A stretch of 64,000 nt of DNA from Escherichia coli (GCF_044647545.1 NZ_CP172818.1); one strand, 5' to 3'; positions 15,007 to 63,015 are shown, counted from the first letter of the stretch. The notes: generated by a model from the letters alone, not told the origin. A program made the numbers and translations.

Positions 15007-15577
15007 GTGCAGTAAACATCAATCTCTTCACATTCTGCTCCCAGCAAATGATCAAGATGCAGCAAATCAGCAATATTCTCCGCGCTTAACATCACACCCG
15101 CGCCAGCACGCTTCTCAACATTTATTCTCCATTGCCCCAGCCATTGCTCAAGTAAACGTAAATCACGTTGAATGGTTTTTTCCGAAACATTTAAATAGCC
15201 GCAATCGTAACAATAGTCGTATATTCCCTTCGAGGTAAAAGGAATCGTAATAATCTGTTTTGTCGCGAGGTAATCATTTGCATTTTTACCCTTATCACAG
15301 ATTAAGAAGCCCTATGAGGAAGAGCTTCAGTTGCCATCTCTGAGGGTAAATATAAAGCAGAATAATTTCACAACAATACTCAAAATATGTCCGTAACCCG
15401 GACAGTGATAAAACAAAGCAAGGCGGTTAAGGGATATTTTTCAGCACAGATCACATTTTCGTGATGAATAATCGTGATCATGCTCGCAAATACGATGGAA
15501 GAAATATTTATTACCAGATGTGAGATTATTTACCGGACACGACACAAAACCATTCGTATCCGGCATTCTTCAATAGA

Positions 15578-23856: not shown

Positions 23857-23894
23857 ACCGCTACAACTACTGACCAACGCTTCTTTACCTGATA

Positions 23895-25085
23895 TCAGGA
23901 TTTCTTCATTTTCACCTTTGCGGTGACCAATAACGCCGTCAGCAACATCAATGTGCCGGACAACATCAACGGCGAAGTCAGACCAATATTATCCAGCGCA
24001 TAACCGCCGATTGCCGCGCCACAGGTATTAGCAAGCTGAATAACCGCCACCTGAATAGACCCGGCTTTTTCTGCCTGATCGGCCAGTGAGCGGGTGATCC
24101 ACGTTGACCAGCCGACAGGAACCAATGCAAAAGTTAGCCCCCAGATAATCGCCACGCCGGTAGCAACGATTTTATCGCTTCCCCACAACGTCAGCACCAA
24201 CGCACTCACAGCCAGTATTAACGGCGCGCCTGCTAAGGCCAGTTTTACCGAACGTTTAAGAATGAACGACGAAAGCGACGTACCAATAAAGCTGGCGATA
24301 CCAAAACTCAACAGCACCAGCGTTAAGCCATCCACGCCGAATCCCGCCAGGTTCATATACACCGGGCGAATATACGTGAAGAAAGCAAACTGCCCGGCGA
24401 AAGACATGAAGATGGCGATCATCCCTGCCATCACACCCGGACGTTGTAATAAGCGGAAAGTATTTTGTTTCTGATGCGAGGGTTCGCCTGGCAGCGAAGG
24501 CAATGATTTGATAATCCAGAAAATACACAGCACGCCCATCACCGCCGCCGCATTAAAGACATTGCGCCAACCGATAAGCTCGCCTAAAAAACTGCCCAAC
24601 GGTGCGGCAATCACCAGCGCAATAGAAACCGCGCCGAAGATCACCGACAGCGCCTTCGGCACCGTACGCGGCGGTACCAGACGCATGGTCAGCGACGCCG
24701 ACATCGCCCAGAACCCACCCAGCGCCAGCCCCAGACAGGCACGACCGATTAAAAGCAAACTGAATGAGTTAGCAAAGGAAACCAGCAAGCAGGAGAGCGT
24801 CAGCAAAACGGCAAACAAAATAACAACATAGCGGCGGTCAGTGGCCTGAATGGTCTGGGTAATAAACAAACTGGCAAACATTGCCACAAAGGCGGTCACG
24901 GTCACCGATTGCCCGGCAACCCCTTCCGAAATGCCTAAATCCTGGGCCATTGGCGTCAACAAACTGACGGGCAAAAACTCAACGATAATCAGACAGGCGA
25001 CGCAAAACGCCACCGAGAAAACGGCTGACCAGTTCGGTCGGGTGATGGCATCCGCGCCGCGGTTTTCGGCAATAAATTCACTCAT
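23895..25085 (-). CDS. nepI: MFS purine ribonucleoside efflux pump
   Basis: 396 codons from the ATG at 25085 ([10 protein letters not shown]) inside track ORF 23895-25133. Confidence 0.9.
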
Positions 25086-25339
25086 GGTGTTACCCGTGGC
25101 ATGTTTCAGGGGAAAAGCCGACCACTTTAACATTGAAATGTGTGACGCATTTAACGTTTTTGCAACTTTTACGGTGTTGTGGGAAAAGTTCGAGGCTGCT
25201 CGAAGAAATAAAAATCATAGGGCAAGGTGATATGCATTTTCGCAATGGGGTTGGGAATAAGGGATAAAGTATTCATTGTGATATACTTTAATAACAGGAT
25301 CTCAACGATATACGCGTGTTTAAAACCAAATATTTTGCA

Positions 25340-25985
25340 AGGGAAGCCAGGTCTCAGCAAAAAAGAAAAAAAGTTGCCGGTTTAGAAACGGAACAAGGTA
25401 AAGCTGATGTACTTGGTGGTGGCGTTTTTAAAAAGCGCCTTCACCGAAATCGTGAGCGTGCAATTATTCTGCAAAAGGGGAAAAAAATTGTTTTTACACT
25501 TTTTTATATAAAAAAAAGGATATGTCAAAAATAAATAGCAAGAAACGGCTTGGTTTCCGTAAACTCCAAAACATTTTCCCCTCCCTACCAAAACCCAAAC
25601 AAAAAAAAAGATTAAAACAAAAAAACAAACAGAAATCCCCTAGACCCGAAAAAAAAAAATAAAAAACCCCCGCTTTTGGGCATTCCCAACCCCGCGGCCC
25701 GGGTTTCCCCCCCCCATGCTTTTTCTCCCCAAAAAAAACGTACTTTTACAAAACCCCCCCCACCAGCACGCAAAAACTACAACCCGGTGAAAAAAAAAAA
25801 ACACGGGAAAAAAAAAAAAGGAAGCCACCCCCCTTCGCCCCCATCCCAAAACCAGCGTTTCAACAGCACAAAAAAAGGAAAAGGGGCGCAAACCCCCCAG
25901 GGGTTCTTTAAAAATCCCCAGCATGGTGGAAAAAAAAGGGGGGGGGGGGGGGGAGTAAAAAAAAAAGAAAAAAGTCATACCAGCC
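25340..25985. other. Homopolymer-rich low-complexity block, non-coding; probable artefact or non-native insertion
   Basis: Composition degrades from ordinary sequence into long A, C and G runs (for example G16 at 25938-25953, A-runs of 10-14); no frame resembles a real protein; boundaries approximate. Confidence 0.7.
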
Positions 25986-25987
25986 CC

Positions 25988-26062
25988 AATACCGGATGCG
26001 GCGTGAACGCCTAATCCACCCTACAGGTCAGGCGCGGTCTGTAGGCTGATAAGACGAAGCGG
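25988..26062. repeat. REP (repetitive extragenic palindromic) element, partly degenerate
   Basis: CCGGATGCGGCGTGAACGCC ... GTAGGCTGATAAGACG closely resembles E. coli REP units, with several mismatches in the first unit. Confidence 0.7.
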
Positions 26063-26064
26063 TT

Positions 26065-26517
26065 TTAATGCAGCCAGTGAACGCCCTCGGCAGGCTGAAA
26101 GAACGCGTTATAGCGCATCTGAAAAGCATTAATATCCTGCATTTCAGGTTCGGTTTCGCGCAGAAAACCCAGCGCCAGCCTGACCTGAGCATCAGTAATC
26201 GGCGCGGCAAGGCGGGCTTTTTGTAAAATCCGATGCCATTGCAGCATGTTCTGTTCGCTACCATCGACAATGACAATTTGCCAGATGAGCAACACCTGCG
26301 CGGCGTTTTGCAGGTGCGACTCATCCGGGCGATGCAAATAACGTAAAAATTCGTCACCGGCTGACTTTCCCATTTGATCGACCATCGACTCCACGGGTAC
26401 GACATCGATGTTCAGCCGATCGCTGAGACGGCGAATCGCTTTTCTGGCCCCGGATGTCAGCACCCGAAAACCAATCACAAACACTACCGCCAGCGTGGCG
26501 AGCATTATCCAGATCAT
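26065..26517 (-). CDS. yicN: DUF1198-family protein YicN
   Basis: About 150 codons from the ATG at 26517 inside track ORF 26065-26544; N-terminal TM segment. Confidence 0.8.
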   Translation of the reverse strand: MIWIMLATLAVVFVIGFRVLTSGARKAIRRLSDRLNIDVVPVESMVDQMGKSAGDEFLRYLHRPDESHLQNAAQVLLIWQIVIVDGSEQNMLQWHRILQKARLAAPITDAQVRLALGFLRETEPEMQDINAFQMRYNAFFQPAEGVHWLH

Positions 26518-26569
26518 GAGTTCTCCTGCGTAATCAGAACTCATAATATCTGGAAACCCTCGCCAGTTA

Positions 26570-27904
26570 CTAATCCACCAGAATAATCTTCAGTGCAAAC
26601 AGAGCTGCGACCACCACCACACACAGGTTCAGATCGCGCCAGCGCCCGGTGCACACTTTCATGATGCAGTACGACATAAAGCCGAGTGCAATCCCTTCGG
26701 TGATCGAGAAAGTAAAGGGCATCATCACCGTGGTAATAAATGCGGGCACCGATTCGGTAAAATCATCCCAGTTAACGCGCGCCAGGCTCGAAGTCATCAG
26801 CACGCCAACAAAGATTAACGCTCCGGCGGTTGCGTAAGGAGGAACCATCGCCACCAGCGGTGAGAAGAACATAACCAACAGGAACATAACGCCGACCACA
26901 ACCGCAGTCAGCCCCGTGCGACCACCGACAGCCACACCTGAAGTACTTTCAATATAGGCGGTAACAGACGAGGTACCGATAAACGCACCCGCCACCGAAC
27001 TGACGCTATCAACATACAGCGCCTTATTCATATTGGGGAATTTACCGTTACTATCTATTAAGCCAGCTTTATCAGTTACACCAATTAATGTTCCTGATGA
27101 ATCAAATAAGTTGATCAGCATAAAGGAGAAAATGATACCGGCGAGTTCAAGTGATAACGCGCCGCTCAAATCCACTTCACCAATGACGCCGCTAATATCA
27201 GGCGGAATGGAATAGACGCCGCTAAAATGAACATCACCGAAAAATAATCCACAGCAAGACGTCACCACAATAGAAACAAGCACCGCGGCATGAAAATGAC
27301 GTGATGACAACACGGTTATAATAAAAAACCCTAAAATACCTAACAACACGCCGTGAGAACTTAAATCGCCAATCATCACCAGGGTGTCTTTATTGGCGAC
27401 AATAACGCCAGTATTTTTTAATCCCATTAAGGCGATAAATAATCCGATTCCGCTGGTGATACCAATACGTAAACTTAATGGAATGTTGGAGATCATCCAG
27501 TACCGGATACGAAACAGCGTGAGCAAAAATAGCCCAACTGCGCCCCAGAATATCGCGCCCATCCCGGTCTGCCAGGAGATACCCATCGCCCCCACGACCA
27601 CGAACGCAAAGAAGGCGTTCAGCCCCATTGCCGGAGCCAGCGCCACGGGTAAGTTAGCAAATATCCCCATCGCAATACTGCCGATACCGGCAATCAAACA
27701 GGTGGTAACAAACACCACTTTCGGGTCCATTTGTGCCGCGCCGAGGATTTGCGGGTTCACAAAAACGATGTACACCATGGTTAAAAAAGTGGTCATCCCC
27801 GCAATCAATTCTGTGCGGACGGTGGTCCCATGCTGAGGTAGTTTAAATAATCGCGAAAGCGTCCCTGATTCATTACTCACGTAATCGGTATTGTCATTAT
27901 TCAT
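26570..27904 (-). CDS. adeQ: Adenine permease (NCS2/AzgA family)
   Basis: 444 codons from the ATG at 27904 (MNNDNTDYV) inside track ORF 26570-27982; divergent from ade. Confidence 0.9.
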   Translation of the reverse strand: MNNDNTDYVSNESGTLSRLFKLPQHGTTVRTELIAGMTTFLTMVYIVFVNPQILGAAQMDPKVVFVTTCLIAGIGSIAMGIFANLPVALAPAMGLNAFFAFVVVGAMGISWQTGMGAIFWGAVGLFLLTLFRIRYWMISNIPLSLRIGITSGIGLFIALMGLKNTGVIVANKDTLVMIGDLSSHGVLLGILGFFIITVLSSRHFHAAVLVSIVVTSCCGLFFGDVHFSGVYSIPPDISGVIGEVDLSGALSLELAGIIFSFMLINLFDSSGTLIGVTDKAGLIDSNGKFPNMNKALYVDSVSSVAGAFIGTSSVTAYIESTSGVAVGGRTGLTAVVVGVMFLLVMFFSPLVAMVPPYATAGALIFVGVLMTSSLARVNWDDFTESVPAFITTVMMPFTFSITEGIALGFMSYCIMKVCTGRWRDLNLCVVVVAALFALKIILVD

Positions 27905-28078
27905 TTTTTTGTCCATTGGAGGAGATTTAATCCCTTGCTTTTGTAAAACAAATGACAACAACGGTTCAGTGATAATTATCACATTTCAATTGCACATTAA
28001 TGGATATTCTTTAATAATCTCGCGACGTTTCTTTATGATAAATAATAATCAAATTGATAAAATCAAAATGAGAAAAAT

Positions 28079-29845
28079 ATGAATAATTCTATTAACCATA
28101 AATTTCATCACATTAGCCGGGCTGAATACCAGGAATTGTTAGCCGTTTCCCGTGGAGACGCTGTTGCCGATTATATTATTGATAATGTCTCTATTCTCGA
28201 CCTGATCAATGGCGGAGAAATTTCCGGCCCAATTGTGATTAAAGGACGTTACATTGCCGGTGTTGGCGCAGAATACGCTGATGCTCCGGCGTTGCAGCGG
28301 ATTGATGCCCGCGGCGCAACGGCGGTGCCAGGGTTTATTGATGCTCACCTGCATATTGAATCCAGCATGATGACGCCGGTCACTTTTGAAACCGCGACCC
28401 TGCCGCGCGGCCTGACGACCGTTATTTGCGACCCTCATGAAATCGTCAACGTGATGGGCGAAGCCGGATTCGCCTGGTTTGCCCGCTGTGCCGAACAGGC
28501 AAGGCAAAACCAGTACTTACAGGTCAGCTCTTGCGTACCCGCTCTGGAAGGCTGCGATGTTAACGGTGCCAGTTTTACCCTTGAACAGATGCTCGCCTGG
28601 CGGGACCATCCGCAGGTTACCGGCCTTGCAGAAATGATGGACTACCCTGGCGTAATTAGCGGGCAGAATGCGCTGCTCGATAAACTGGATGCATTTCGCC
28701 ACCTGACGCTGGACGGTCACTGCCCGGGTTTGGGTGGTAAAGAACTTAACGCCTATATTGCTGCGGGTATTGAAAACTGCCACGAAAGTTATCAGCTGGA
28801 AGAAGGACGCCGGAAATTGCAACTCGGCATGTCGTTGATGATCCGTGAAGGGTCCGCAGCCCGCAATCTCAACGCGCTGGCACCGTTGATCAACGAATTT
28901 AACAGCCCGCAATGCATGCTCTGTACCGATGACCGTAACCCGTGGGAGATCGCCCATGAAGGACACATCGATGCCTTAATTCGCCGCCTGATCGAACAAC
29001 ACAATGTACCGCTGCATGTGGCATATCGCGTAGCCAGCTGGTCGACGGCGCGCCATTTTGGTCTGAATCACCTCGGCTTACTGGCACCCGGCAAGCAGGC
29101 CGATATCGTCCTGTTGAGCGATGCGCGTAAGGTCACGGTGCAGCAGGTACTGGTGAAAGGCGAGCCGATCGATGCGCAAACCTTACAGGCGAAAGAGTCG
29201 GCGAGACTGGCACAATCCGCTCCGCCGTATGGCAATACCATTGCCCGCCAGCCTGTTTCCGCCAGCGACTTTGCCCTGCAATTCACGCCCGGAAAACGCT
29301 ATCGGGTCATTGACGTCATCCATAACGAATTGATTACCCACTCCCGCTCCAGCGTCTACAGCGAAAACGGTTTTGATCGCGATGATGTGTGCTTTATTGC
29401 CGTTCTTGAGCGTTACGGACAACGACTGGCTCCGGCCTGTGGTTTACTCGGCGGCTTTGGCCTGAATGAAGGTGCGCTGGCGGCGACGGTCAGCCATGAC
29501 AGCCATAATATTGTGGTGATAGGTCGTAGCGCAGAAGAGATGGCGCTGGCGGTCAATCAGGTGATTCAGGATGGCGGCGGGCTGTGCGTGGTCCGTAACG
29601 GTCAGGTACAAAGTCATCTACCGTTGCCCATTGCCGGGCTAATGAGCACCGACACGGCGCAGTCACTGGCGGAGCAAATTGACGCCTTGAAAGCCGCCGC
29701 CCGTGAATGCGGTCCGTTACCCGATGAGCCGTTTATTCAGATGGCGTTTCTTTCCCTGCCAGTGATCCCCGCGCTGAAACTAACCAGTCAGGGGCTGTTT
29801 GATGGCGAGAAGTTTGCCTTCACTACGCTGGAATTCACGGAATAA
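28079..29845 (+). CDS. ade: Adenine deaminase
   Basis: 588-codon amidohydrolase with metal-binding HxH motif ([10 protein letters not shown]). Confidence 0.95.
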
Positions 29846-29854
29846 TAAAAAAAA

Positions 29855-29873
29855 GCCCGGCGTCATGCCGGGC
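29855..29873 (-). terminator. Rho-independent terminator shared by convergent ade and uhpT
   Basis: GCCCGGC-GTCAT-GCCGGGC hairpin flanked by an A8 run on the + strand (U-run for the minus-strand uhpT transcript). Confidence 0.75.
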
Positions 29874-29891
29874 AAAAGTCACCAGTTACGT

Positions 29892-31283
29892 TTATGCCAC
29901 TGTCAACTGCTGAATTTTTTTCTCGCGGCGGATTTTGCGTTCTTCCATCACCGCCACTATCGCCATCAGGCAGATACAACCAATCGCGGCGATATCCAGC
30001 GCGGCGAAGGTGCCTGCCCAGCCGGTAAGGCCAAATACCGGCGTCCCATCGGCAATCATTCCCAGACCTAACTTGGCAAAGCTGTCACCAATCAGGTAAG
30101 CGAAGGTGCCTTTAATACCATCGGCAGCGCCAATCGCTTTTTTAGGTACAAAGCCAACAGCAGCTACACCAATCAACAATTGCGGGCCAAAGACCAGGAA
30201 ACCCAACGCAAAGAGAGAAGCAAGGTAGATATATTCGTTGCTGGCGTGTTGATACACACCGAGCGTGGCGATAATCAGCGCCAGCGCGATACAGGCCACC
30301 AGGCCACGGCGACCGTTCGCCAGGTCAGAGAGCCAGCCCCACAGCAGCGTACCGACCAGCGCACCAGCTTCAAACAGCGTAAAGCCCTGAATCGCCACCG
30401 CTTTAGAGAGTTTCAGTTCCTGGAACGCATACACGGTTGACCACTGGTCGATACCAATACGCACCACATAGAGGAAAATGTTGGCAAAGCACAGCAGCCA
30501 GATCACTTTGTTTTTCAGCACATACTCAACAAAGATCTGCCACTTGGTCATATCGGTAGATTCTGTCTCTTTATCCTCTTCACTGATCTCCTCGCCAAAC
30601 AGCTCTTCAGCTTTGCCGAGGCCATAAGATTCCGGGGAGTCGCTGCCGTAACGCAGACCGATAAAACCAACAATCAGCGCGATAATCGACGGGAAAATAA
30701 ACATGCCGATGACATGACCATCGAACAGGTAATTTGCGCCGAACAGCGCCACACCTGCTGCGCCTGCACCACCAAGGTTGTGAGAAATGTTCCAGAAACC
30801 GAGGAATGTCCCGCGTTTACGACGCGGCGTCCATTTGGTGATGGTGGAGTAACTGCACGAACCGCCGGTACTCTGGAAAAAGCCGCTTAAGGCGTAGAAG
30901 GCAATCATCAGGAACAGGCTAACCGAGCCGCTGCCCATACTGGCGCTGAAGCCCAGCATACAAATGGCAGACAGGATCAGCATGAACGGCAGGAATTGTT
31001 TGGTGTTTTTGCCGTCGGCGTAGTAAGAAACCAGCGTTTTACCCACGCCATAAGTGATGGAGAAGCCCAGGCCGATCATCCCCAGCTGCGTCATGCTCAA
31101 CCCGTAGGTCGAGATCATGTCGTTCTGCGCGATGTTAAAGTTCTTGCGAATCAGGTACATCGTAAGGTAGCCGATAAAGACCACCAGGTAGGATTGCATG
31201 AACGGTTTGAACCACATTTTGCGCCGCACTTCGAGCGGAAGGTCCAGGGTCGGCTTGCGAACCTGGTTTAAGAAAGCCAGCAT
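29892..31283 (-). CDS. uhpT: Hexose-6-phosphate:phosphate antiporter
   Basis: 463-codon MFS organophosphate:Pi antiporter. Confidence 0.95.
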
Positions 31284-31359
31284 GGGTTACTCCTGAAATG
31301 AATACCTGCGTGAGGCATGCATTGTAAAAATCAGCAGCAAATCAGGCCTGAGATAGCGT

Positions 31360-31374
31360 CCAGGCAAAACCTGG
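31360..31374 (-). promoter_or_regulatory. Inverted repeat in the uhpT promoter region, candidate UhpA binding site
   Basis: CCAGGCAAAACCTGG palindrome about 80 bp upstream of the uhpT start. Confidence 0.4.
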
Positions 31375-31420
31375 AAAATTTCTTAGTTTTGCCGGATATG
31401 AAGTGAAAAGGTGAGATGCA

Positions 31421-32743
31421 TCACGCTTCTCGCGGTGTCTGGGCGTTCAAAAAGGGCAGTAATAGCAGTGCGGAAATCCCGGCGGCGATGGCGATAACCA
31501 CAAAAAATCCGCTCCAGTGCCAGGTATCGAGTACTTTCGCCAGCGGCCAACCAGCAAGCGACGCACCAAGATAAGCAAACAAGCCGACAAATCCCGTCGC
31601 CGCCCCTGCTGCCTCTTTGTGGGAACACTCTGCCGCCGCCATGCCGATTAACATCTGCGGGCCAAAGACAAAAAAACCAATGGTGAAGAAGCAGGTTGCC
31701 TGCATCACGTAGCTGGCAAATGGCATCAGCCACAGCGAGCCGACTGAAAGCAAAATTCCGGCAGCGAAAATCAAATTCATCGGCCCGCGGTTGCCGTTAA
31801 AGAGTTTGTCCGAGCCCCAACCCGCTACCAGCGCACCGATAAATCCGCCCAGTTCAAACATCGTCACAGCCGTATTCGCCGTGACCAGATCGACGCCCAG
31901 CGTCTCGGACATATACAAATTGCCCCAGTCGTTGATCGCCGCCCGAACCACATAGACCAGCACATAGCAAAACGAAAGTAGCCAGATATACGGATTCAGC
32001 AACACATACTTGGTGAGGATCTCTTTACGCGTCAGCCCTGCCCCTTCTTGTTGTTGAGCAATCTCCAGCGCGTCGTGCCGCCATTCACCAACCGCTGGTA
32101 AACCTAACGCCTGCGGGCGATCGCGCAGCCGCCAGCAGAGAAAAATCCCCACGACGATCGCCATACAACCAGCAATCATCATCCCGGCACGCCAGCCGTA
32201 ATGCAGCGCAGCTGCTGCCATCACAATGGGAATGAGCGCACCGCCAACGTTATGCGCCGTGTTCCATAATGCCCACCAACCGCCGCGCTCGGTACGAGAA
32301 TACCAGGCGGTTAACAGACGCGCACACACCGGTGAACCCCAGCCCTGGAAAAAGGCGTTCAACACCCAGAGCACGGCAAACGCCCATAGCGACGTCGAGA
32401 AGCCAAACAGAATGTTGATAATGCCCGTGGCGATAAGCCCTATCCCCATAAAATAACGGGCATTTGAGCGGTCGCTGACAATGCCGGAGACAAACTTCGA
32501 CACGCCGTAAGTAATGTAAAACAGGGTCGCTAACAGGCCGATATCGCTACGGCTGAGCACGCCGTTAGCAAGGATTTCTGGTACGGCGGCGTTAAAACTT
32601 TTACGCGTGAAGTAAAACAGCGCGTAACCCAGCCAGATGGTCAGCAGAATATGCCGACGCCAGTAGCGATAGCGGGCATCAATTTCATGTTTATCAGTCA
32701 TTAATGGCGCATCGGCAGGCGCTTTCAGAAACGGCAACATCAT
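31421..32743 (-). CDS. uhpC: Membrane sensor protein UhpC (UhpT paralogue)
   Basis: About 440-codon MFS protein paralogous to UhpT, upstream of uhpT and downstream of uhpB. Confidence 0.93.
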   Translation of the reverse strand: MMLPFLKAPADAPLMTDKHEIDARYRYWRRHILLTIWLGYALFYFTRKSFNAAVPEILANGVLSRSDIGLLATLFYITYGVSKFVSGIVSDRSNARYFMGIGLIATGIINILFGFSTSLWAFAVLWVLNAFFQGWGSPVCARLLTAWYSRTERGGWWALWNTAHNVGGALIPIVMAAAALHYGWRAGMMIAGCMAIVVGIFLCWRLRDRPQALGLPAVGEWRHDALEIAQQQEGAGLTRKEILTKYVLLNPYIWLLSFCYVLVYVVRAAINDWGNLYMSETLGVDLVTANTAVTMFELGGFIGALVAGWGSDKLFNGNRGPMNLIFAAGILLSVGSLWLMPFASYVMQATCFFTIGFFVFGPQMLIGMAAAECSHKEAAGAATGFVGLFAYLGASLAGWPLAKVLDTWHWSGFFVVIAIAAGISALLLLPFLNAQTPREA

Positions 32744-32749
32744 CGAACC

Positions 32750-34255
32750 TTAGACATAGCGTTGAGGTAGAGAAACGCTGACACGCGTGCCGTGCAAACA
32801 GGAGATGGTCAAGGTGCCGCCCAGCGCCGTTACGCGCTCGCGCATTCCGGTGAGGCCAAAACCTTGTTGCCCGGAACCCGGCGGCAAACCGCTGCCATCG
32901 TCTTCAATTACCAGCATCAACCGTTCATCCTGCTGCCAGCCTTGCAGGGTGACCGCGCTGGCATCGGCATGTTTCACAATGTTGTTCAACCCTTCCTGGC
33001 AGACGCGAAACAGCGTCACGCGCTGGTTTTCGCTTAACGCTGATTCATCGATTCGCCATTCGAGATGACTGACAATGCCGCGCCCTTCCAGCTCCATTTC
33101 CCGCATCAGTGAGCGGATGGCCTGCTCCAGGGTGAGATCATCCAGCTGGCGCGGACGTAACCGCCCTAACAAACGGCGCACCGCATCGTAAACACCCAGC
33201 GACAGTTGTTCGATGAGCTGCCCGCTCTGCTTCACGCTGGCGTTATCTGCCGCCAGCCGCTGAACAATACCTGCTTGAGTACGAATAGCAGTGATGGTCT
33301 GACCGATATCGTCGTGCAGCTCACGCGCCACATCACGGCGCACGCTCTCTTCAGTTTCTAACAAACGTTCAGCCAGATGCTGATTGCGCGCTAGTTCCTT
33401 TTGCAGCGACTGGTTAAGTTCACGCAACCGCTGGATGCCTGCGCCCAGTAACAACCCTGTCAGACTTTGCACCAGCAGCGAGAGCAATAAATCCACCGAA
33501 TGATCGCGCCAGGTTTGACTGGCGATCAGCGCGATGGCGTTCATCAACGTCGCAATCAGCGCCCCTTGCCAGCCGTAGTGCCAGGCCAGCGCGATAATCG
33601 GCAGCGCCAGGCAGAATGGCGTAAAGCGCGACAGTTCGTCCGGCAATCCCAACTGGAGCCAGAGACTGATAACAAACAGCAGCAAGTACCAGACCAGATG
33701 CCGCCCGCGCCAGTTGATCGGTTGAGAAACTAACGACGGCCCGAGCGGCAGCCAGATGTTATTGGCGAGATAGTGCCAGAACACCAGACATATCGGGGCC
33801 AGCGTCAGGCCGCCAGTTAAAGTCAGCAACAGCGCATTCCACGACTCTTTCCCGTGCCAAAGCCAGGGCAGCGACTGCAACAACGCCGCCGCCGTCAGCG
33901 CCGCACCCTGTAACAGCAAGGTGCGCCAGTCACGTTGATGGCGATAGCGCGAGATCAGCGCCACGGGCAATAACGTCAGTAAACTACCGATCATCAATAA
34001 GGAGAAATGGGTTAAACCGACCGCCTGCATTAGCCAGTAAATCAGCAGCCACTCCGCACCCAGTAGCACCGGCCAGTATCCGCGCGGGCATTGCAGCATT
34101 AGCCCTAGCCGCAGGCCAAACGGAAATAACAGCACCGCCATATCAGGGCGCTCAACAAGGTGCAGGCTGATACTCCACAGGCAAAACCATGCGGCAGAGA
34201 AGATAAAAAAGCAGGCAATAACGGTAATTAAGCGAGAGAAAAACGTCTTCATCAC
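32750..34255 (-). CDS. uhpB: Sensor histidine kinase UhpB
   Basis: About 500-codon protein with N-terminal multi-TM domain and C-terminal HisKA_3/HATPase region (HDDIGQ motif). Confidence 0.93.
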
Positions 34256-34842
34256 CAGCCATCAAACATGCGGCGCGCCAGTTCAACGTCGTTACTGACG
34301 CCCAGTTTTTCCATCAGGTTAGCGCGATGGACGTGTACCGTTTTCGGTGACAAGCCCAGTTCGGCGGCAATCTCTTTCACCGCCATTCCTTGCGCCAGTT
34401 TTTCCGCCACCTGGCGTTCGCGTTTGGTCAGCGGGTCCTGGCGACCGGATGCCAGTTTAATGGCAATATCCGGCGTCAGATAACAGCCGCCCGTGGCAAC
34501 CGTATGCACCGCAGCAATCAGTTCGTCAGGGCTACAACGCTTGGAGAGAAAGCCGCGCGCCCCCGCGTTAAGCGCCTGCTCAACCAGCGCCGGACTGTCA
34601 TGAACAGAGAGCATAATCGTCGCCATACCTTTCGGCAGCTGGCTTAGCAGCTCCAGACCGGAGATATCGGGCATGGAGATATCGCAAATACACACCTGCA
34701 CACCGCGCCCCGGCAGCCCCGCCAACGCCTCGCGCCCCGAACCAAACTCGGCAACTACCTGCAAATCAGGTTCCAGCCCCAGCAGCTGCGCAAAGCCGGA
34801 GCGGACGATGAGGTGATCGTCTATAAGTGCAACGGTGATCAT
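34252..34842 (-). CDS. uhpA: NarL/FixJ-family response regulator UhpA
   Basis: 196 codons from the ATG at 34842 ([10 protein letters not shown]); receiver domain plus LuxR-type HTH; overlaps uhpB by 4 bp. Confidence 0.93.
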
Positions 34843-35149
34843 GATTGGGTCCTGGCGGATAAAAAACGCGCATACCTTAACGATAAGCGCGATGTTGTTC
34901 AAGTTGGATATGGGGTATGTATTCTTAATGATGTTGTCTTATCTCAAAACTTACGAAAGTAACGTTGTAGTTTATTCGAAAAACGAATTATTTGTAGTTC
35001 GATTGCAATATTCCTGAAAAATTTCTCCTCCTTCGAAATCTTTTCAGTAACAAAGATCATCCAAAACCTATAATCTTCACGGAACCTCATTAAGAGATCA
35101 TCCACGAGTCGTTATGAATATAATCCTCACCGTATTCGATAAAAGAAAT

Positions 35150-36737
35150 AAAAAATAAAACTAACAATCTATTGTTTTAAAAAAAAAAGGTTGGGAAAGA
35201 AGGGAAAAACAAGAAAAAAAATTTTTTCCCAAGAAAAAAAAAAACCGGGTAACAACAAACCGGGAAAAAAAAAAAAGGTTCCTGATAAAATACCCCCTAT
35301 CAACCGACAGAAACCTTGAACAACATAATACATTACCTATTCCTGAAATACTGAACAAGAAATAATTTTCGTTTTTTCCAACAATTAAAAATTCCAAAAA
35401 ATAAATCAGCAAAAAAATTCAAAAAAAATTCGGAAATTTTTCCAACCACAAAAAACTTATCCCAAAATCAGATGGCATTAATTTTAACCAAAAAAAGAAA
35501 ATGACCCCCCAATTTCGCCAAAGAAAAAAGGAAAAACCCCAAAAAAAATTTTTAAAATTAAAAAAAAAAAGAAATAATTAAGAATAATGATTTCTATATA
35601 TTAATGGCAACAAACAAATATTAAATTACAACACAACACAAACAAACTTTAAGTAAATTACTATACAAATCAATAACAATAACACCTTAACACACAAAAC
35701 AACCTACATTTCACAGTCATAACGAAAAAAATCATAAAACCACTCAATAAATAAAACACCGAAACAAATATAAAAAACATAAAAAAAAAAAAAAAAAAAA
35801 AACAAGAAAAAAAAAAAAAATAAAATAAAAATAAAAAAAAAAACGAAACGAAAAAATAATAAACAATAAAAGACCCCCACAAACAAACAAATCAAAACTA
35901 CACTCACTCCCCCTGATTGATTAAAAAAACATCTCTCAGATATAAAATACATAAAACAAACAAAAAAATAAATGAAAAAAAACAACAAATAAATAATTTA
36001 ATAATAAAAATAAAAATATTACGCAACAACAACTATCAACAAAAAAAATAAAAAAAAAAAACAAAGATAAGAAACGTAAGAAAAAAAAAAAAAAAAAAAA
36101 AAAAGACGAAAAAAAAAAAAAACTATGAATCCGAACAAGTAAAAAAAAAAAAAAAGAACAAACAATAACCAATCAAAAAAAAAAAAATAAATAAAAAAAA
36201 AAAATTCATTTAAAAAATGAAAAAAACACAAAAAAATAGAAAACAAAAAAAATAAAACAAACGGAAAAAAAAAAAAAAAAAAAAGAAGACTGAAGAAAAA
36301 AAATACTAAAAAAATAATTAATATTAAACCAAAAATAAAAAAAAATAAAAAATAAAAAACTAAAAAAACACAAAAAATCAACAAAAAATAAAAAAAAATA
36401 AACAAACCAAAAAAAAAAAAAAAAAAAAACGAAAACATTAAAATATATAACAAAATAAAAACTAAAAAAACAAAAAACAAACAAAAAAAAAAAAGAAATA
36501 ACAATAAAAAAAAAATTATAAACAACCAAAACAAATATAAAAAAAAAAACGAAAACAAAAAAAAATTAAAAAAAAAAAGAAAAATATAAAAAAAAAGAAA
36601 AAAGAAGAAAAATACAAAAAACAAAAAAATAAAAAAAAAAAAAAACACAAAAAAAAAAAAGAAAAACGAAAACAAGAAAAAAAAGAAAAATGTAAAATCA
36701 GCAAAATTCAGAAAATTTGAAAGAGAAAAAACCAAAA
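35150..36737. other. About 1.6 kb A-rich low-complexity block between uhpA and ilvN, non-coding; probable artefact or non-native insertion
   Basis: Long poly-A runs (up to about 23 nt) with sparse C, G and T; minus-strand track ORFs are poly-Phe/Leu artefacts of the T-rich complement; ends exactly at the ilvN stop codon; start approximate. Confidence 0.75.
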
Positions 36738-37028
36738 TTACTGAAAAAACACCACGATCTTGTTAAACATCGTCGGATTAGACTGATTACGCTGCACTTT
36801 CACCACATCTTCCAGCTTATCGATTTGGCTTATCACCTACTCCAGACGCTGGTCATCCTTGACCAGTAGCCAGATATGGCTTTTGTCGCTGTCCTGAATC
36901 GGCAGGCAGAGAATGCCTTCAACGTTAAAAGCGCGACGGGCAAAAAGCCCACAAACGTGAGTCATTACGCCCGGATGGTTGCGAACGGTGAGTTCGAGAA
37001 TCACGTTGTCATGAGTTGTGTTTTGCAT
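36738..37028 (-). pseudogene. ilvN: Acetolactate synthase I small subunit, reading frame interrupted by an in-frame TAG at codon 64
   Basis: First 63 codons match IlvN; TAG at 36837-36839; the same frame continues [32 protein letters not shown] to the TAA at 36738-36740. Confidence 0.8.
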
Positions 37029-42243: not shown

Positions 42244-42302
42244 TGTTGCTCCTTAACTGTTCCTCGCCGAAAAAAGTAGGCCAGGAAAACAGCAATAATG
42301 CA

Positions 42303-45674: not shown

Positions 45675-49021
<3,347 letters not shown>

Positions 49022-55859: not shown

Positions 55860-57148
55860 CCAACGCGCTTCACATCGCCCACCAGCAGGATGTAAGAGAG
55901 CGCGCCAATCAACGCAACGGCGGAGATATAAACCAGTGCAGGCGCGAAACCGTAACCCTGCGCCAGGTACCCCACCACCAGAGGAACGGTGATGCCGCCC
56001 AGACCACCGACAAAGTTAAACACGCCGCCGGTTAAACCAATCAGGCGCATCGGTGCCAGAGAAGAGACCAGCGACCAGGTAATCGAAGCAAAACCGTTGC
56101 CGAAGAATGCCAGCGCCATCAGGCACATAATCATCATCGGATCGTTAGTGTAGTTAGCGCCCATAATGCAGGTGGAGATCAGCAAGCCGCAGATAATCGG
56201 CGTTTTACGCGCAAAGCCCAGTGAAAAGCCCTTACGTACCAGCAGATCCGCGACCCAGCCAGAGAGCAGGACGCCGACAAACGCCGCGAGGAACGGTACC
56301 GTGGTCATAAAGCCTGCTTTCAGCGCCGTGATTCCTTTTTCCTGGGTTAAATAGTTCGGGAACCAGGTTAAAAAAAACCACAGTGTAGAAGCCACCGCAA
56401 ATTGCCCAAGATAGACACCGATCAGTTTACGATGGAACACCAGTTTCCAGTCTTTGGCTGTTAACGGCTGACGCGCCTCTTTTTTCACCGGCGCATCACC
56501 ATCCACCAGACCGCCGCCATCACGAATGTAATCCAGTTCAGCTTTGCTGATGCCTTTAGTCAGGCGCGGCGGCTGATAAACCTTAAACCAAATCAGCGAC
56601 CAGATAATGCCGATACCACCGGTGACAATGAACACCCAGTGCCAGCTCAACATTTCCTGAATCCAGATCAGCAGCGGAGTCAGAAACGCCAGACCGACAA
56701 ACTGACCAGACGTATAAAAACCAACGGCAGAAGCGCGTTCATGTTCCGGGAACCAGCTGGTCACCATCCGGTTATTGGTCGGGAAAGCGGGCGCTTCGAA
56801 AATACCGGTTATCGCGCGCAGACCAATTAATGACATTAATCCCGTGGCAAAGCCCTGGAATAACGTCGCCACTGACCAGCCAAATATCGCAATAAAATAA
56901 GTCACGCGTGAACCTACGCGATCTAAAAACCAACCGCCGGGGATCTGACATAGCGTATAAAGCCAGGCGAAGGCCGAAAATACATAGCCCATTTCCGCTT
57001 TCGTAATACCGAACTCTTCCTGAATATGGGCGGAAGCCACGGCCAGGTTAGCGCGGTCAACATAACAAATGACCACCGTAATAAAGATCATCACCAGCGT
57101 CAGATAACGCCGACGCCCCGGCTTTGCTGCATTAACGGGAATATCCAT
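55856..57148 (-). CDS. dgoT: D-galactonate:H+ symporter (MFS)
   Basis: 430 codons from the ATG at 57148 ([15 protein letters not shown]). Confidence 0.93.
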
Positions 57149-57267
57149 AGCGAGCTTTCTCCAGATTTTGGGCATAGCGAAGCCGCTCACCATGCCCTGT
57201 AATTTACAGAGGGTTATATTTTTGTATTGCTGTTTTAGTGCCCGATGAGGGGCTTACGTGGCAGGAA

Positions 57268-58416
57268 TTACCACTCTGCTACGCTGTTATCTTCATGACG
57301 CCAGAGCGGATTACGCCAGTCCGGGGCATTTTTACTGAACTCAATAACTTTAGCTTCGTCGATTTCCACGCCTAAGCCCGGTTTCGTTAGCGGTTTAAAG
57401 AAGCCGCCAACCATGCTGAAGTCTTCTTTGTTTTTCACAAAGTCGAGTAACTCCGCGCCTTTGTTGTAATGAATTCCCATACTTTGTTCCTGAAGTACGG
57501 CGTTATAGGAAACAAAGTCGATATGCAGACAAGCTGCCAGTGCAATCGGTCCGAGCGGACAGTGCGGCGCAAGGGTCACGTCATAGGCTTCTGCCATTCC
57601 GGCAATTTTGTAGCATTCGGTAATACCGCCTGCATGAGAGAGATCTGGTTGCAGAATCGAAATACCGCCCGCCTCCAGCACGCGTTTAAAATCGAAACGT
57701 GAGAACATGCGTTCACCCGCCGCCAGAGGAATATGCGTTTGTGCCGCCAGTTTCGGGTAGTATTCGGCCTGTTCCGCCAGCACCGGCTCTTCAATAAACA
57801 GCGGGCGATACGGTTCCAGTTCTTTAATCAGTACTTTCGCCATCGGCGCGCTGACGCGACCGTGGAAATCAAGACCAAACTCAATCTGATTGCCAAAAGC
57901 TTCACGAATTTGTGCCACGGTGTTGACTGCCGCATCTACCGCGCGGGAGTTATCAATTAGCCCCAGTTCTTCACAACCGTTCAGTTTGAAGGTATCGAAG
58001 CCGATTTCGCGCAGGGTTTTAATGCCGTCGATAACATTCGCCGGACGATCGCCGCCGACCCAACTGTAGGCTTTAATTTTGTCACGAACCAGGCCACCCA
58101 TCAGTTGCCAGACCGGCGCATTCAGCACTTTACCTTTGATATCCCATAACGCCTGGTCGATCCCGGCGATGGCGCTCATCAGGATCGGACCGCCACGATA
58201 AAATCCGGCGCGATACATCACTTGCCATAAGTCATTGATGCGCGATGGATCCTGACCAATCAAATAGTCACTCAGCTCGTGAACTGCCGCTTCCACCGTA
58301 CGAGCGCGGCCTTCGATCACGGGCTCGCCCCAACCGACCACGCCTTCATCGGTTTCAATTTTCAGGAACATCCAGCGGGGAGGTAAACGATACGTAGTAA
58401 TTTTGGTGATTTTCAT
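57268..58416 (-). CDS. dgoD: D-galactonate dehydratase (enolase superfamily)
   Basis: 382-codon [35 protein letters not shown]. Confidence 0.95.
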
Positions 58417-59030
58417 TGCACTGCCTCTCGATACGCCTTAACAAATGCTGCTGCCTGCTGCGCGGTGCGTTCTACGGATTGCCCGGCGCGATAGAGATCG
58501 CTGCCTAAGCCCGCCCCTGCACAACCTGCGTCTATCCACTGCGCCAGGTTTTCTGGCGTCACACCGCCAACGGCAAAGACTGCGATGTCCTGCGGTAATA
58601 CCGCTTTTAACGCTTTGATGTATTGCGGACCAAAAGCCGATGACGGGAATATTTTCAGCGCCTGCGCGCCCGCGTCGATCGCGGTAAAGGCTTCAGTCGC
58701 CGTCGCGCAGCCGGGGCAAACGGTCATGCCATAGCCCACCGCGCGGCGGATCACTTCACTATGGATATTGGGCGTAACGATGAGCTGGCAGCCCATCCTG
58801 GCGAGCGTATCGACCTGTTCAGGTTTCAGTACCGTACCTGCGCCAATCAACGCCTTATCGCCGTACGCATCAACGATGGCGGGAATGCTTTTCTCCCATT
58901 GAGGGGAATTCAGCGGGATTTCAACCGCGTCGAACCCGGCGTCAATCACCGCGCCAACATGCGCCAGCGCCTCGTCGGGCGTAATACCGCGCAAAATGGC
59001 GATCAGCGGGAGTTTAGTTTGCCACTGCAT
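58413..59030 (-). CDS. dgoA: 2-dehydro-3-deoxy-6-phosphogalactonate aldolase
   Basis: 205-codon KDPG-aldolase-family ORF; overlaps dgoD and dgoK. Confidence 0.93.
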
Positions 59031-59892
59031 GAGCGATGCTCCTTATACCAGCCTGAAATGCCTTGTCGCCCGCTACCACCGCCACGTCGCAACCCATCGC
59101 CTGAAAGGCTTGCTGGTAGCGCGCGGTCAGCGATGTTCCGGCGACAAGGGTGATGGCGTGTTGATGGGTCACATAGTCGCGCATACTGGCAACCTCTGCG
59201 CCAATCAACAAACCAGAGAGAAATTCGCTGACCTGTTCACGGGGAAGCGTTCCCAGCACATGCGATGCGCGAACTTCAAAAAGCTGCGGCAATATGGCGG
59301 GCGCATTAAGGCCACGCTCAAGGCCAGCCGCGAAGGCATCGGCAGAGTTTTCCTGCGGCGGCAAACCTGCGCCAATCAATGAGTGATTTAACAGTAAATG
59401 ATGTAATTCACCGGTCATTACGGTGCGAAAATCGTTGATTTGCTGGCTATCGGCCTGCACCCATTTGCAATGCGTACCGGGCATGACATAAAGAGAGGAA
59501 GGAGCCAAAGCACGCGCGCCGATCAATTGTGTTTCTTCGCCGCGCATCACATTGTGGTTATCGTCATGAGAAACGCATAATCCGGGAATAATCCAGATAT
59601 TGTCGCCAACAGACGTTAATTGTTCGCCAATAGATGAAAAACGGGCAGGAACAGATAAATACGGTGCAACTTTCCAGCCGACATTGCTGCCGACCATTCC
59701 TGCCATCACCACTGGCGTATTCTCTTCACGCCAGTCGGCCGTGACTTCTGCTAACACCGCAGCCGGAGATTTTCCGTTCAGGCGCGTGACGCCTGCTTCT
59801 GATTGCCTGCTCTCCAGGCAGTGGTCGCCCTGATAAAGCCAGGCGCGCAGATTGGTCGATCCCCAGTCAATTGCGATGTAGCGAGCTGTCAT
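59014..59892 (-). CDS. dgoK: 2-dehydro-3-deoxygalactonokinase
   Basis: 292-codon ORF MTARYIAIDWGSTNLRAWL. Confidence 0.93.
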   Translation of the reverse strand: MTARYIAIDWGSTNLRAWLYQGDHCLESRQSEAGVTRLNGKSPAAVLAEVTADWREENTPVVMAGMVGSNVGWKVAPYLSVPARFSSIGEQLTSVGDNIWIIPGLCVSHDDNHNVMRGEETQLIGARALAPSSLYVMPGTHCKWVQADSQQINDFRTVMTGELHHLLLNHSLIGAGLPPQENSADAFAAGLERGLNAPAILPQLFEVRASHVLGTLPREQVSEFLSGLLIGAEVASMRDYVTHQHAITLVAGTSLTARYQQAFQAMGCDVAVVAGDKAFQAGIRSIAHAVAN

Positions 59893-60578
59893 GTGATTTC
59901 CTTTAACCTTCGTGTCGAGCTGGCGATCATGGTAAGCGCCGCCTGCTCTGCCGCATCGCCGTCCTGATGCCGTATCGCATCAAACAGCGCCTTATGTTCC
60001 TGGAGCGTTTGCGGCATGTTGGCCTCATCACCCATCCAGGTTCGTTCAAATACCGCCCGCTGCAGCGAACTGATCGCAATGCTAAGTTGCTGTAACACCG
60101 GGTTATGCACCGACTGCAGCACCGCCTCGTGGTAGCGAATATCCGCTTCGTTAAACGCTTCGCGGTCCTGATTGTTGGCAATCATCTCGTTCAGCGCTGA
60201 TTCAATCTGCGCCAGATCGCTGGAAGTCGCGCGCTCTGCCGCCCAACGGGCAATCGCCGGTTCCACCAGATTTCGCACTTCGCTCATTGCACTGATAAGC
60301 CGTGGGTCGTAGTCGTTTTCCAGCACCCATTGCAGTACGTCAGTATCGAGGTAATTCCACTGATTACGCGGTGCCACAAACGCCCCGCGATAACGTTTCA
60401 TTTCAATCAGCCGCTTCGCCATCAGCGAACGGAACACCTCACGGATGATGTTGCGCGAGGTTGCAAACTCCTCACAGAGCTCCGCCTCAGCCGGAAGCGG
60501 CGAGCCTGGTACGTATTTGCCGTGAACGATCTGTTTACCCAGCGTAATGACGATGCGATCGGTTTTATTGAGAGTCAT
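59889..60578 (-). CDS. dgoR: GntR/FadR-family repressor of the galactonate operon
   Basis: 229-codon ORF with N-terminal GntR HTH and FCD domain; first gene of the dgo operon. Confidence 0.92.
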   Translation of the reverse strand: MTLNKTDRIVITLGKQIVHGKYVPGSPLPAEAELCEEFATSRNIIREVFRSLMAKRLIEMKRYRGAFVAPRNQWNYLDTDVLQWVLENDYDPRLISAMSEVRNLVEPAIARWAAERATSSDLAQIESALNEMIANNQDREAFNEADIRYHEAVLQSVHNPVLQQLSIAISSLQRAVFERTWMGDEANMPQTLQEHKALFDAIRHQDGDAAEQAALTMIASSTRRLKEIT

Positions 60579-60644
60579 GGAGAGTCCTTGTGCTCTGTAT
60601 GTTCTTCTCTACTTTACCCCGATCGATGCATAACGCGGCAACTT

Positions 60645-60717
60645 TGTAGTACCAGCGTGATGACGTTCGCGTTTTCCGTGTGCGTAATGTAGTACAAGCT
60701 TATATTACTGTACTACA
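60645..60717 (-). promoter_or_regulatory. dgo promoter region with repeated GTAGTACA-type operator half-sites
   Basis: TGTAGTAC at 60645, TGTAGTACA at 60688 and the inverted copy TGTACTACA at 60709, upstream of dgoR. Confidence 0.65.
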
Positions 60718-60855
60718 ATTTAGATCACAAAAAGAACAATGCATAAAAAAATGACATGCGTCGGGCAGAAATCTGAAAAGGGATAACAGGCGCTAAACAG
60801 GAGGGAAAGAAGAGTATGCTTTCAACGACTTAGCTACTCGTTTAAAGGATTAATC

Positions 60856-62881: not shown

Positions 62882-63015
62882 GATAATCACCTGTAAAGCG
62901 TTACGTGTTGACCCAAAAAGTATAGATCTGCGGGATGATAATTGCGGATTGCAGAAATAAAAAGGGCGGAGATGATCTCCCGCGACTAAGTCATTTTATC
63001 AGCAACAAAAAGCCA

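Follow-up and report, generated by a model that had tools for sequence, protein, structure and literature searches.

In the Escherichia coli genomes that match the locus studied here, the spacer between nepI and yicN is annotated with a "RelE/ParE family toxin" gene and then an overlapping helix-turn-helix gene. Homopolymer tracts are known from the phase-variable loci of other bacteria, and pileup or reference-guided consensus calling stacks inserted read bases without realigning them to one another. Collapse into homopolymers ("low-complexity collapse") is also documented in sequence generation by Evo 2, where it extends over multiple kilobases and sets in after about 300 to 400 kb of decoding, with no recovery described (bioRxiv 10.64898/2026.01.17.700093). 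The locus compared with these systems below is a block of dense homopolymers at 25340-25985 of the window, by which we mean the whole 64,000-nt stretch of E. coli DNA that was analyzed (GCF_044647545.1, NZ_CP172818.1).

A direct count found 15 homopolymers of at least 7 nt within 25340-25985, as compared with 0.7 on average and 4 at most in 2,000 composition-preserving shuffles, which confirms the description of the block as homopolymer rich in the initial annotation. The longest run is 16 nt (shuffle mean, 6.8 nt), and runs of at least 7 nt occur at about 21 per kb in the block versus 0.29 per kb elsewhere in the window, this background being the window minus its three junk patches. The same annotation had placed a G16 run at 25938-25953 (plus strand), which is exactly there, and had noted C runs of 7 to 9 nt, of which those of 8 and 9 nt are present, but its A14 was slightly too high: the longest A runs measure 12, 12, 11, and 10 nt. 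Its two open reading frames, 25640-25978 on the minus strand and 25676-26014 on the plus strand, also exist, each specifying 112 amino acids of Phe-, Gly-, Pro-, and Lys-rich nonsense.

To place the block, positions 24300-27000 were compared by megablast with 5,426 complete E. coli genomes. The flanks (nepI, yicN, and adeQ) were matched in 5,403 of these, and 1,714 gave a full-length match, all at about 93.6% identity and with a clean module between nepI and yicN. In the reference, the antitoxin gene overlaps the toxin gene by 17 nt. The true 92-amino-acid toxin product matches the Pfam RelE model (PF06296, E = 4.5e-28), and the true 107-amino-acid antitoxin (WP_000125643.1) matches HTH_3 (E = 1.2e-7); the same antitoxin also matches MqsA_antitoxin (E = 1e-5), with NadS-like models below the cutoff and the similarity falling in the C-terminal part of MqsA/NadS-type models. 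The underlying locus is an ordinary type II toxin-antitoxin module, and there is no biological novelty in it, since this pair is common and already annotated.

In the window, blastn against K-12 stops at 25179 and restarts at 25990, so that 25180-25989 (plus strand) has no K-12 counterpart. This accessory insert is 810 nt long, versus 839 nt in ST648-type genomes (NZ_CP033850.1, 1380372-1381210), and the two are collinear. What remains of the RelE-family toxin gene (PF06296) lies at 25361-25658 on the plus strand, where it shares 74.7% identity with the true gene and its frame is destroyed; the true start codon maps to 25361. The remnant of the helix-turn-helix antitoxin gene follows at 25642-25958 (plus strand), 68.2% identical to the true gene and with no frame left. 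A search for a toxin reading frame with a PF06296 domain in 25361-25658 found none, the start codon and an intact frame both being missing, and there is no antitoxin reading frame in 25642-25958, where the three frames read as low-complexity nonsense.

Synteny and orthology place the block nonetheless, as it aligns collinearly and at full length with the module carried by 1,714 genomes. It occupies the same site as the E. coli nepI-yicN RelE/HTH module (e.g., NZ_CP033850.1, 1380556-1381170), with flanks that are 100% identical, but it differs from that module in lacking either reading frame, in its overwritten start codon, and in a text smoothed into homopolymers. The reference alignment across nepI-yicN that had been proposed as a check yields identical flanks around a degraded copy of a toxin-antitoxin module, and it goes beyond the initial annotation in that the block is a degraded real module rather than meaningless filler. 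The block derives from a toxin-antitoxin module but, as written, encodes none; it misrepresents the nepI-yicN module and is not a variant of it. The strain itself almost certainly carries the ordinary nepI-[toxin/antitoxin]-REP-yicN layout, as does about a third of E. coli. An insert of foreign or synthetic origin, with no relation to E. coli, was also considered; it is rejected by the alignment of the block with the native module over its whole length.

The sequence on both sides is intact. To the left, nepI (23895-25085, minus strand), annotated in matching genomes as a purine ribonucleoside efflux pump, lies in a region with 0 differences from ST648 over 23905-25250. To the right, yicN (26065-26517, minus strand), a DUF1198 gene by the annotation of relatives, lies in one with 0 differences over 26000-34922. 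The right edge of the block is marked by a REP-like core, GGATGCGGCGTGAACGCC (25994-26011, plus strand), K-12 homology being back from 25990 and identity to the true sequence standing at 100% from 25986; the abrupt return of normal sequence that the initial annotation had placed at a REP element is borne out. This core is identical in ST648 and present in K-12, and an imperfect 10-nt inverted repeat lies beside it at 26017-26048. GGATGCGGCGTGAACGCC resembles the E. coli REP consensus and is a candidate REP element.

Outside the junk, comparison of the window with NZ_CP033850.1 (ST648) gives 1 difference over 15 kb and no mismatch over 8.8 kb. Among the discriminating sites that follow the two long blocks, the ST648 allele is retained at 132 of 134 and 266 of 286. 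As judged by this identity, the window outside the junk is ST648-lineage chromosome. K-12 reference bias in the backbone was considered and is out, given the ST648 alleles that the window keeps at those sites.

Global alignment against the true sequence shows that the corruption spans 25273-25985 (plus strand), in which 145 bases are substituted, 32 are dropped, and 3 are added, i.e., deletions over insertions at 32:3. The limits first given for the block were thus right at the end, where the last error is at 25985, but too late at the start, since errors begin at 25273. In 50-nt steps, identity stays at 1.0 as far as 25250, is about 0.9 as far as 25536 and 0.60 to 0.78 as far as 25973, and stands at 1.0 from 25986, a fall that agrees with the progressive degradation noted from the sequence at the outset; by quarter of the block it is 0.92, 0.86, 0.68, and 0.68 before the return to 1.0. 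Within 700 nt, divergence comes to about 20%, with 100% identity on either side. A first burst of errors, GCAAAAAAGAAAAAAAG (25351-25372, plus strand), replaces the start codon of the toxin gene, after which about 100 bases are correct. Beneath the block, runs in the true sequence reach 5 nt at most, versus 16 nt in the block as written.

The errors are far from random with respect to the sequence they replace. Among the 145 wrong bases, 125 (86%) copy the adjacent true base at -1 or +1, whereas the permutation null is 68.8 ± 5.7 (47%) and 0 of 2,000 permutations reach 125; within ±2 positions, the wrong base equals a true base in 141 of 145 cases. The errors are a local blur of real sequence, as where the true GGGCTGGAGGTGCTGCTG is replaced by the G16 run. 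They are also directional, as 121 of the 145 substitutions run down the order A<C<G<T. The substituted bases are A in 70 cases, C in 46, G in 18, and T in 11; a true A is almost never miscalled, while in some subintervals substitution affects as many as 61% of G and 52% of T. This strand asymmetry is not compositional: the true insert beneath the second damaged block of the window is T rich on the written strand (1,150 T versus 1,044 A), and the output there is 67% A. A bias that follows the alphabet and is tied to the written strand is indicative of software and not of chemistry or biology.

Several simple error processes were tried and rejected. Bit-level errors in a 2-bit code are out, since G-to-C (17) and T-to-G (11) changes are frequent. 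Run-length-only errors are likewise out, a third of the runs being lost rather than resized. The order of fragility, with G first, then T and C, and then A, agrees with the logic of two-color chemistry, in which G is dark and A gives signal in both channels; that chemistry cannot yield deletions or blocks of 0.7 to 1.8 kb.

The text of the block is not known from elsewhere. Its best match among the 5,426 complete E. coli genomes is 93.6% identical, and none of the 5,426 carries its homopolymer tracts; conservation in other isolates, which would have spoken for real sequence, was accordingly not found, 0 of the 5,426 exceeding 93.6% identity. Neither the 100,044 species-representative genomes nor the 241 million metagenome records searched contain the exact junk string, and the junk reading frames are not in the gene-position index. 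A literature search for a named tool artifact of this shape returned nothing specific.

The same kind of damage recurs elsewhere in the window. A second patch (34904-36737, plus strand) occupies the uhpA/ilvN accessory insert and consists of a G dropout, then blur to about 35550, then A-rich filler; it measures 1.83 kb in the window versus 3.4 kb (two hypothetical genes) in ST648. In its opening of about 230 nt, 41 to 44% of G is missing, 0 of 74 A are affected, and there are no substitutions. Blur follows, with one burst (35150-35300) and then a clean chunk at 35310, and from about 650 nt in there is about 1.1 kb of A-rich filler, in which no collinearity with the true insert was found past about 35550-35700, alignment scores there equaling those of a reversed-sequence control. 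The likeness to a block at 35150-36737 that had been noticed from the sequence alone therefore holds, since both blocks lose G and T, gain A, have far more deletions than insertions, and decay from left to right. The common artifactual or synthetic origin that had been suggested for them gains support from this shared error signature and from the absence of any other record with the block. In both long blocks the recovery on the right is abrupt.

Smaller lesions are found at other places. A third patch of A-rich junk, ATTTCCCACAAAAAACAAAAAAAAAA (46780-46805, plus strand), puts 26 nt in place of 505 bp that in ST648 genomes belong to an intact 6-phospho-alpha-glucosidase gene, and it sits exactly at the K-12-type glvG deletion junction, between GACCACC and AGTGGTTC. 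Single-base indels at 15200, 15282, and 15381 fall within a 528-nt remnant that is missing from K-12. In the yidH-yidJ spacer (42254-42287), where K-12 has yidI, GTA is dropped and then A and AA are added, and in the yidB-gyrB spacer (62980-62982), a K-12/ST648 indel site, 9 nt are dropped where K-12 homology breaks. Length compression is unequal, at 4% in the first block, about 50% in the second, and 95% at 46780.

All of this damage falls in one class of sequence. Error clusters lie in segments without a K-12 counterpart in 7 of 7 cases, and those segments make up about 5% of the window; in this count the second block, with errors over 34923-36737, enters twice (onset and body), the others being 15200-15381, 25273-25985, 42254-42287, 46780-46805, and 62980. 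The K-12-homologous backbone, by comparison, has 0 to 1 differences from ST648 over tens of kilobases, two natural-looking tracts of single-nucleotide polymorphisms (SNPs) aside. This confinement, which the initial annotation had not recognized, points to how the damage may have arisen.

We are close to certain that the block is an artifact of some kind and not real DNA. The observations that any account has to accommodate are its collinearity with the true module, the copying of neighboring bases, the directional and base-biased errors, the confinement to template-less segments, and the absence from other records. From the product alone, we infer a template-guided consensus of reads as the cause, a reading that is on balance probable. 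The record would have been written by a process leaning on a template of K-12-like layout, whether a reference, a draft genome, or an equivalent. Positions with a counterpart in the template would be anchored and called correctly, strain-specific SNPs included, whereas extra sequence would be represented by read segments hanging off an anchored flank and combined without proper mutual alignment. Register would then be lost progressively with distance from the left anchor, each call becoming a vote over neighboring true bases. Such mixing would smooth the sequence into homopolymers, with ambiguous columns dropped and ties or defaults going to A and then to C, until the next anchored position at the right edge restored perfect sequence.

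What would be expected of such a process was largely found. Damage is limited to segments without a template counterpart in all seven clusters, 125 of the 145 wrong bases show the position-locked copying of a neighbor, and error grows from the anchored flank and ceases at the next anchor, the bursts being a partial exception. The larger insert at yicH-yicI, recovered only in its rightmost 528 nt of about 7.2 kb, also counts in favor of a template. The block shares with pileup consensus artifacts at insertions the damage where the template is missing, the decay with distance from the flank, the abrupt recovery, the neighbor-copying errors, the net loss of bases, and the truncation of large inserts. 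K-12 itself was considered as the template and is out, because the yicS-nepI spacer differs from it and the window lacks yidI.

A simulation gave similar numbers. Noisy copies of the true 839-nt insert were left justified, left unaligned, and reduced to a column vote with ties going to the first letter. With 5 to 40 copies and 0.5 to 1% indels, this yielded 100 to 220 substitutions, a neighbor-copy fraction of 0.75 to 0.93, a down-alphabet fraction of 0.6 to 0.85, longest runs of 12 to 19 nt, and a similar decay of identity; the observed values are 145 substitutions, 0.86, 0.83, and a longest run of 16 nt. Because the simulation reproduces the main statistics, a column vote is a sufficient mechanism for them. 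The simple vote model fails, however, on the G-only dropout, on the burst with its recovery, on the unequal compression, and on the unrelated A-rich filler, and in the comparison with pileup artifacts, too, a plain vote leaves the G dropout, the recovering bursts, and the kilobase of A-rich filler without an account. These four misfits look like the work of a stateful decoder, such as neural consensus calling or basecalling, losing and regaining lock.

Because the simple vote fails on those four points, a neural or generative origin is kept as the main rival, as a possible but distinctly less probable account. Here a learned model, either a genomic language model or a prior-driven neural basecaller or polisher, would have emitted the stretch; core E. 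coli sequence would be well known to it and a common accessory module only half remembered, with homopolymer collapse where memory fails. The damage does occur only in sequence absent from the best-known E. coli layout, and the course of the damage, in which a burst and a recovery give way to progressive loss and finally to A-rich filler that bears no relation to the true sequence, would suit such a model. So would output lengths that follow no rule with respect to the true insert (810 nt for 839 nt, about 1.8 kb for 3.4 kb, and 26 nt for 505 nt) and an A bias that is strand asymmetric and text-like. The homopolymer-rich text that worsens with distance, as expected of a language model, was found, but surroundings unlike any natural lineage were not, given 0 to 1 differences from ST648 over the 15-kb and 8.8-kb stretches. 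A free-running generator cannot produce 0 to 1 differences from one natural lineage over tens of kilobases, nor can it keep lineage alleles to the extent seen here (132 of 134 and 266 of 286 sites) or return in register to strain-specific sequence.

Position speaks against such a generator as well. Even deep in the first block the output follows the truth position by position, with G16 over a G-rich 18-mer and A10 over an A-rich stretch, and tracking of this kind requires that evidence from the real sequence be available. The falling quality, the A-dominated homopolymers, and the occurrence in rarer sequence are common to the block and to the Evo 2 collapse (bioRxiv 10.64898/2026.01.17.700093), but the runs in the block are at most 16 nt and are position locked to a gene pair, and perfect lineage sequence resumes after them. 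The documented collapse is also far longer and comes much later in decoding. If the model were a read-driven neural consensus caller, this account would overlap the template-guided consensus that we prefer.

Corruption of the assembled text, whether a synthetic perturbation of accessory segments (deliberate or accidental) or a lossy re-encoding of them, is a rather improbable alternative. The alphabet-ordered bias and the strand asymmetry do suggest software over chemistry, and the text is in no public collection that was searched. Deterministic text filters of the local minimum, maximum, majority (with tie-breaks), asymmetric, and bitwise types were tried, and none fits; they account for at most 70% of columns, versus 72% for plain identity. 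Within this set, "minimum" rules fit far better than "maximum" rules. Moreover, such corruption offers no obvious reason to pick exactly the template-less segments or to decay from one edge.

It is very unlikely that the block is the untrimmed low-quality tail of a single read, from Sanger sequencing or from sequencing by synthesis with dephasing, that bridges two contigs. The one-directional decay of quality, the wrong calls that copy neighbors as overlapping peaks or signals would, and the abrupt return of good sequence where a next contig would begin are all in keeping with such a tail. In general, untrimmed read tails share with the block this decay and these smeared calls but differ from it in length, in placement relative to structural junctions, in the polarity common to both blocks, and in the absence of N. 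A tail-compatible length and a placement unrelated to genome structure were looked for and not found, the second block being about 1.8 kb and all damaged places lying at junctions of structural difference. At that length, and preceded by perfect sequence, the second block is too long for a tail, and read ends would not be expected at segments without a K-12 counterpart in 7 of 7 cases. The identical polarity of both blocks, a burst followed by 100 perfect bases, the pure G dropout in perfect register, and the replacement of 505 bp by 26 nt with no N calls also speak against it.

Real DNA, in which the toxin-antitoxin locus was hypermutated in vivo into a homopolymer mosaic such as an extreme contingency locus, is hardly credible and effectively excluded, since it has in its favor only the existence of the text and the homopolymer tracts of phase-variable loci elsewhere, and against it the 1,714 genomes with a clean module at the site versus 0 of 5,426 with anything similar, about 20% divergence in 700 nt between identical flanks, neighbor-copying and alphabet-ordered errors that leave no reading frame, the same damage at two unrelated loci and at small indel junctions, tracts that are absent from relatives, where those of a contingency locus would be present and vary in length (0 of 5,426 genomes, with true runs of at most 5 nt), and the lack of any known mutational process that smooths toward the local majority base on one strand. 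That the record is a true chromosome in which an in vivo process rewrote accessory DNA into strand-biased homopolymer mosaics and left the core untouched is scarcely conceivable, and it is just as far-fetched that the DNA so rewritten comprised the toxin-antitoxin module, an AT-rich island, and part of glvA. If true, such rewriting would amount to targeted hypermutation or scrambling of horizontally acquired sequence.

The implications of a template-guided consensus, or of any other artifact, lie in quality control. The record misrepresents the accessory genome, with at least three garbled stretches and several damaged indel junctions, and up to three islands may be lost from it. The record would give wrong gene calls, wrong numbers of pseudogenes, wrong presence/absence calls for the pan-genome, and wrong statistics on homopolymers or repeats. 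Other records could be screened for the same combination of collinear blur, neighbor-copy errors, alphabet-ordered bias, and confinement to template-less segments.

Two ST648 islands are missing from the window. One is a 6.7-kb island with PTS, lyxose, and BglG-antiterminator genes. At the yicH-yicI junction (15017-15554), only the rightmost 528 nt are kept of about 7.2 kb that is present in ST648 and absent from K-12; the left breakpoint is the K-12-type boundary, and the indels at 15200, 15282, and 15381 lie 174 to 355 nt from the right anchor. This junction was found in 0 of the 5,426 complete genomes, and it represents a deletion private to this strain or else a reconstruction that was cut short. 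The other is an 18-kb ETT2-linked island between yicS and nepI, with type III secretion eip genes, eilA, and the inverse autotransporter gene iatC. The yicS-nepI junction (23858-23900) is of the common island-less type, with a best full-length match in the collection of 96.5%, and its 43-nt spacer differs from that of K-12 by 2 mismatches and a 2-nt indel. The missing islands could be genuinely absent from the strain.

Two SNP tracts set the window apart from ST648, one at 56010-60828 (dgoT-dgoR) with 45 sites and one at 36754-36960 (the 3' end of ilvN) with 10 sites. Both are transition rich (36:9) and show no alphabet bias, and about half of their alleles are those of K-12, the other half being in neither genome (third lineage). 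For the dgo tract, no complete genome is more than 99.1% identical. These tracts look like natural recombination in a real strain, and they show that this strain is absent from the RefSeq complete set.

Finally, the toxin gene is annotated as frameshifted even in the clean genome NZ_CP033850.1 (1380556-1380863), and its product there begins to match the Pfam RelE model only at position 19. In clean genomes of this lineage, a decaying toxin and an intact antitoxin may already make up the native module.
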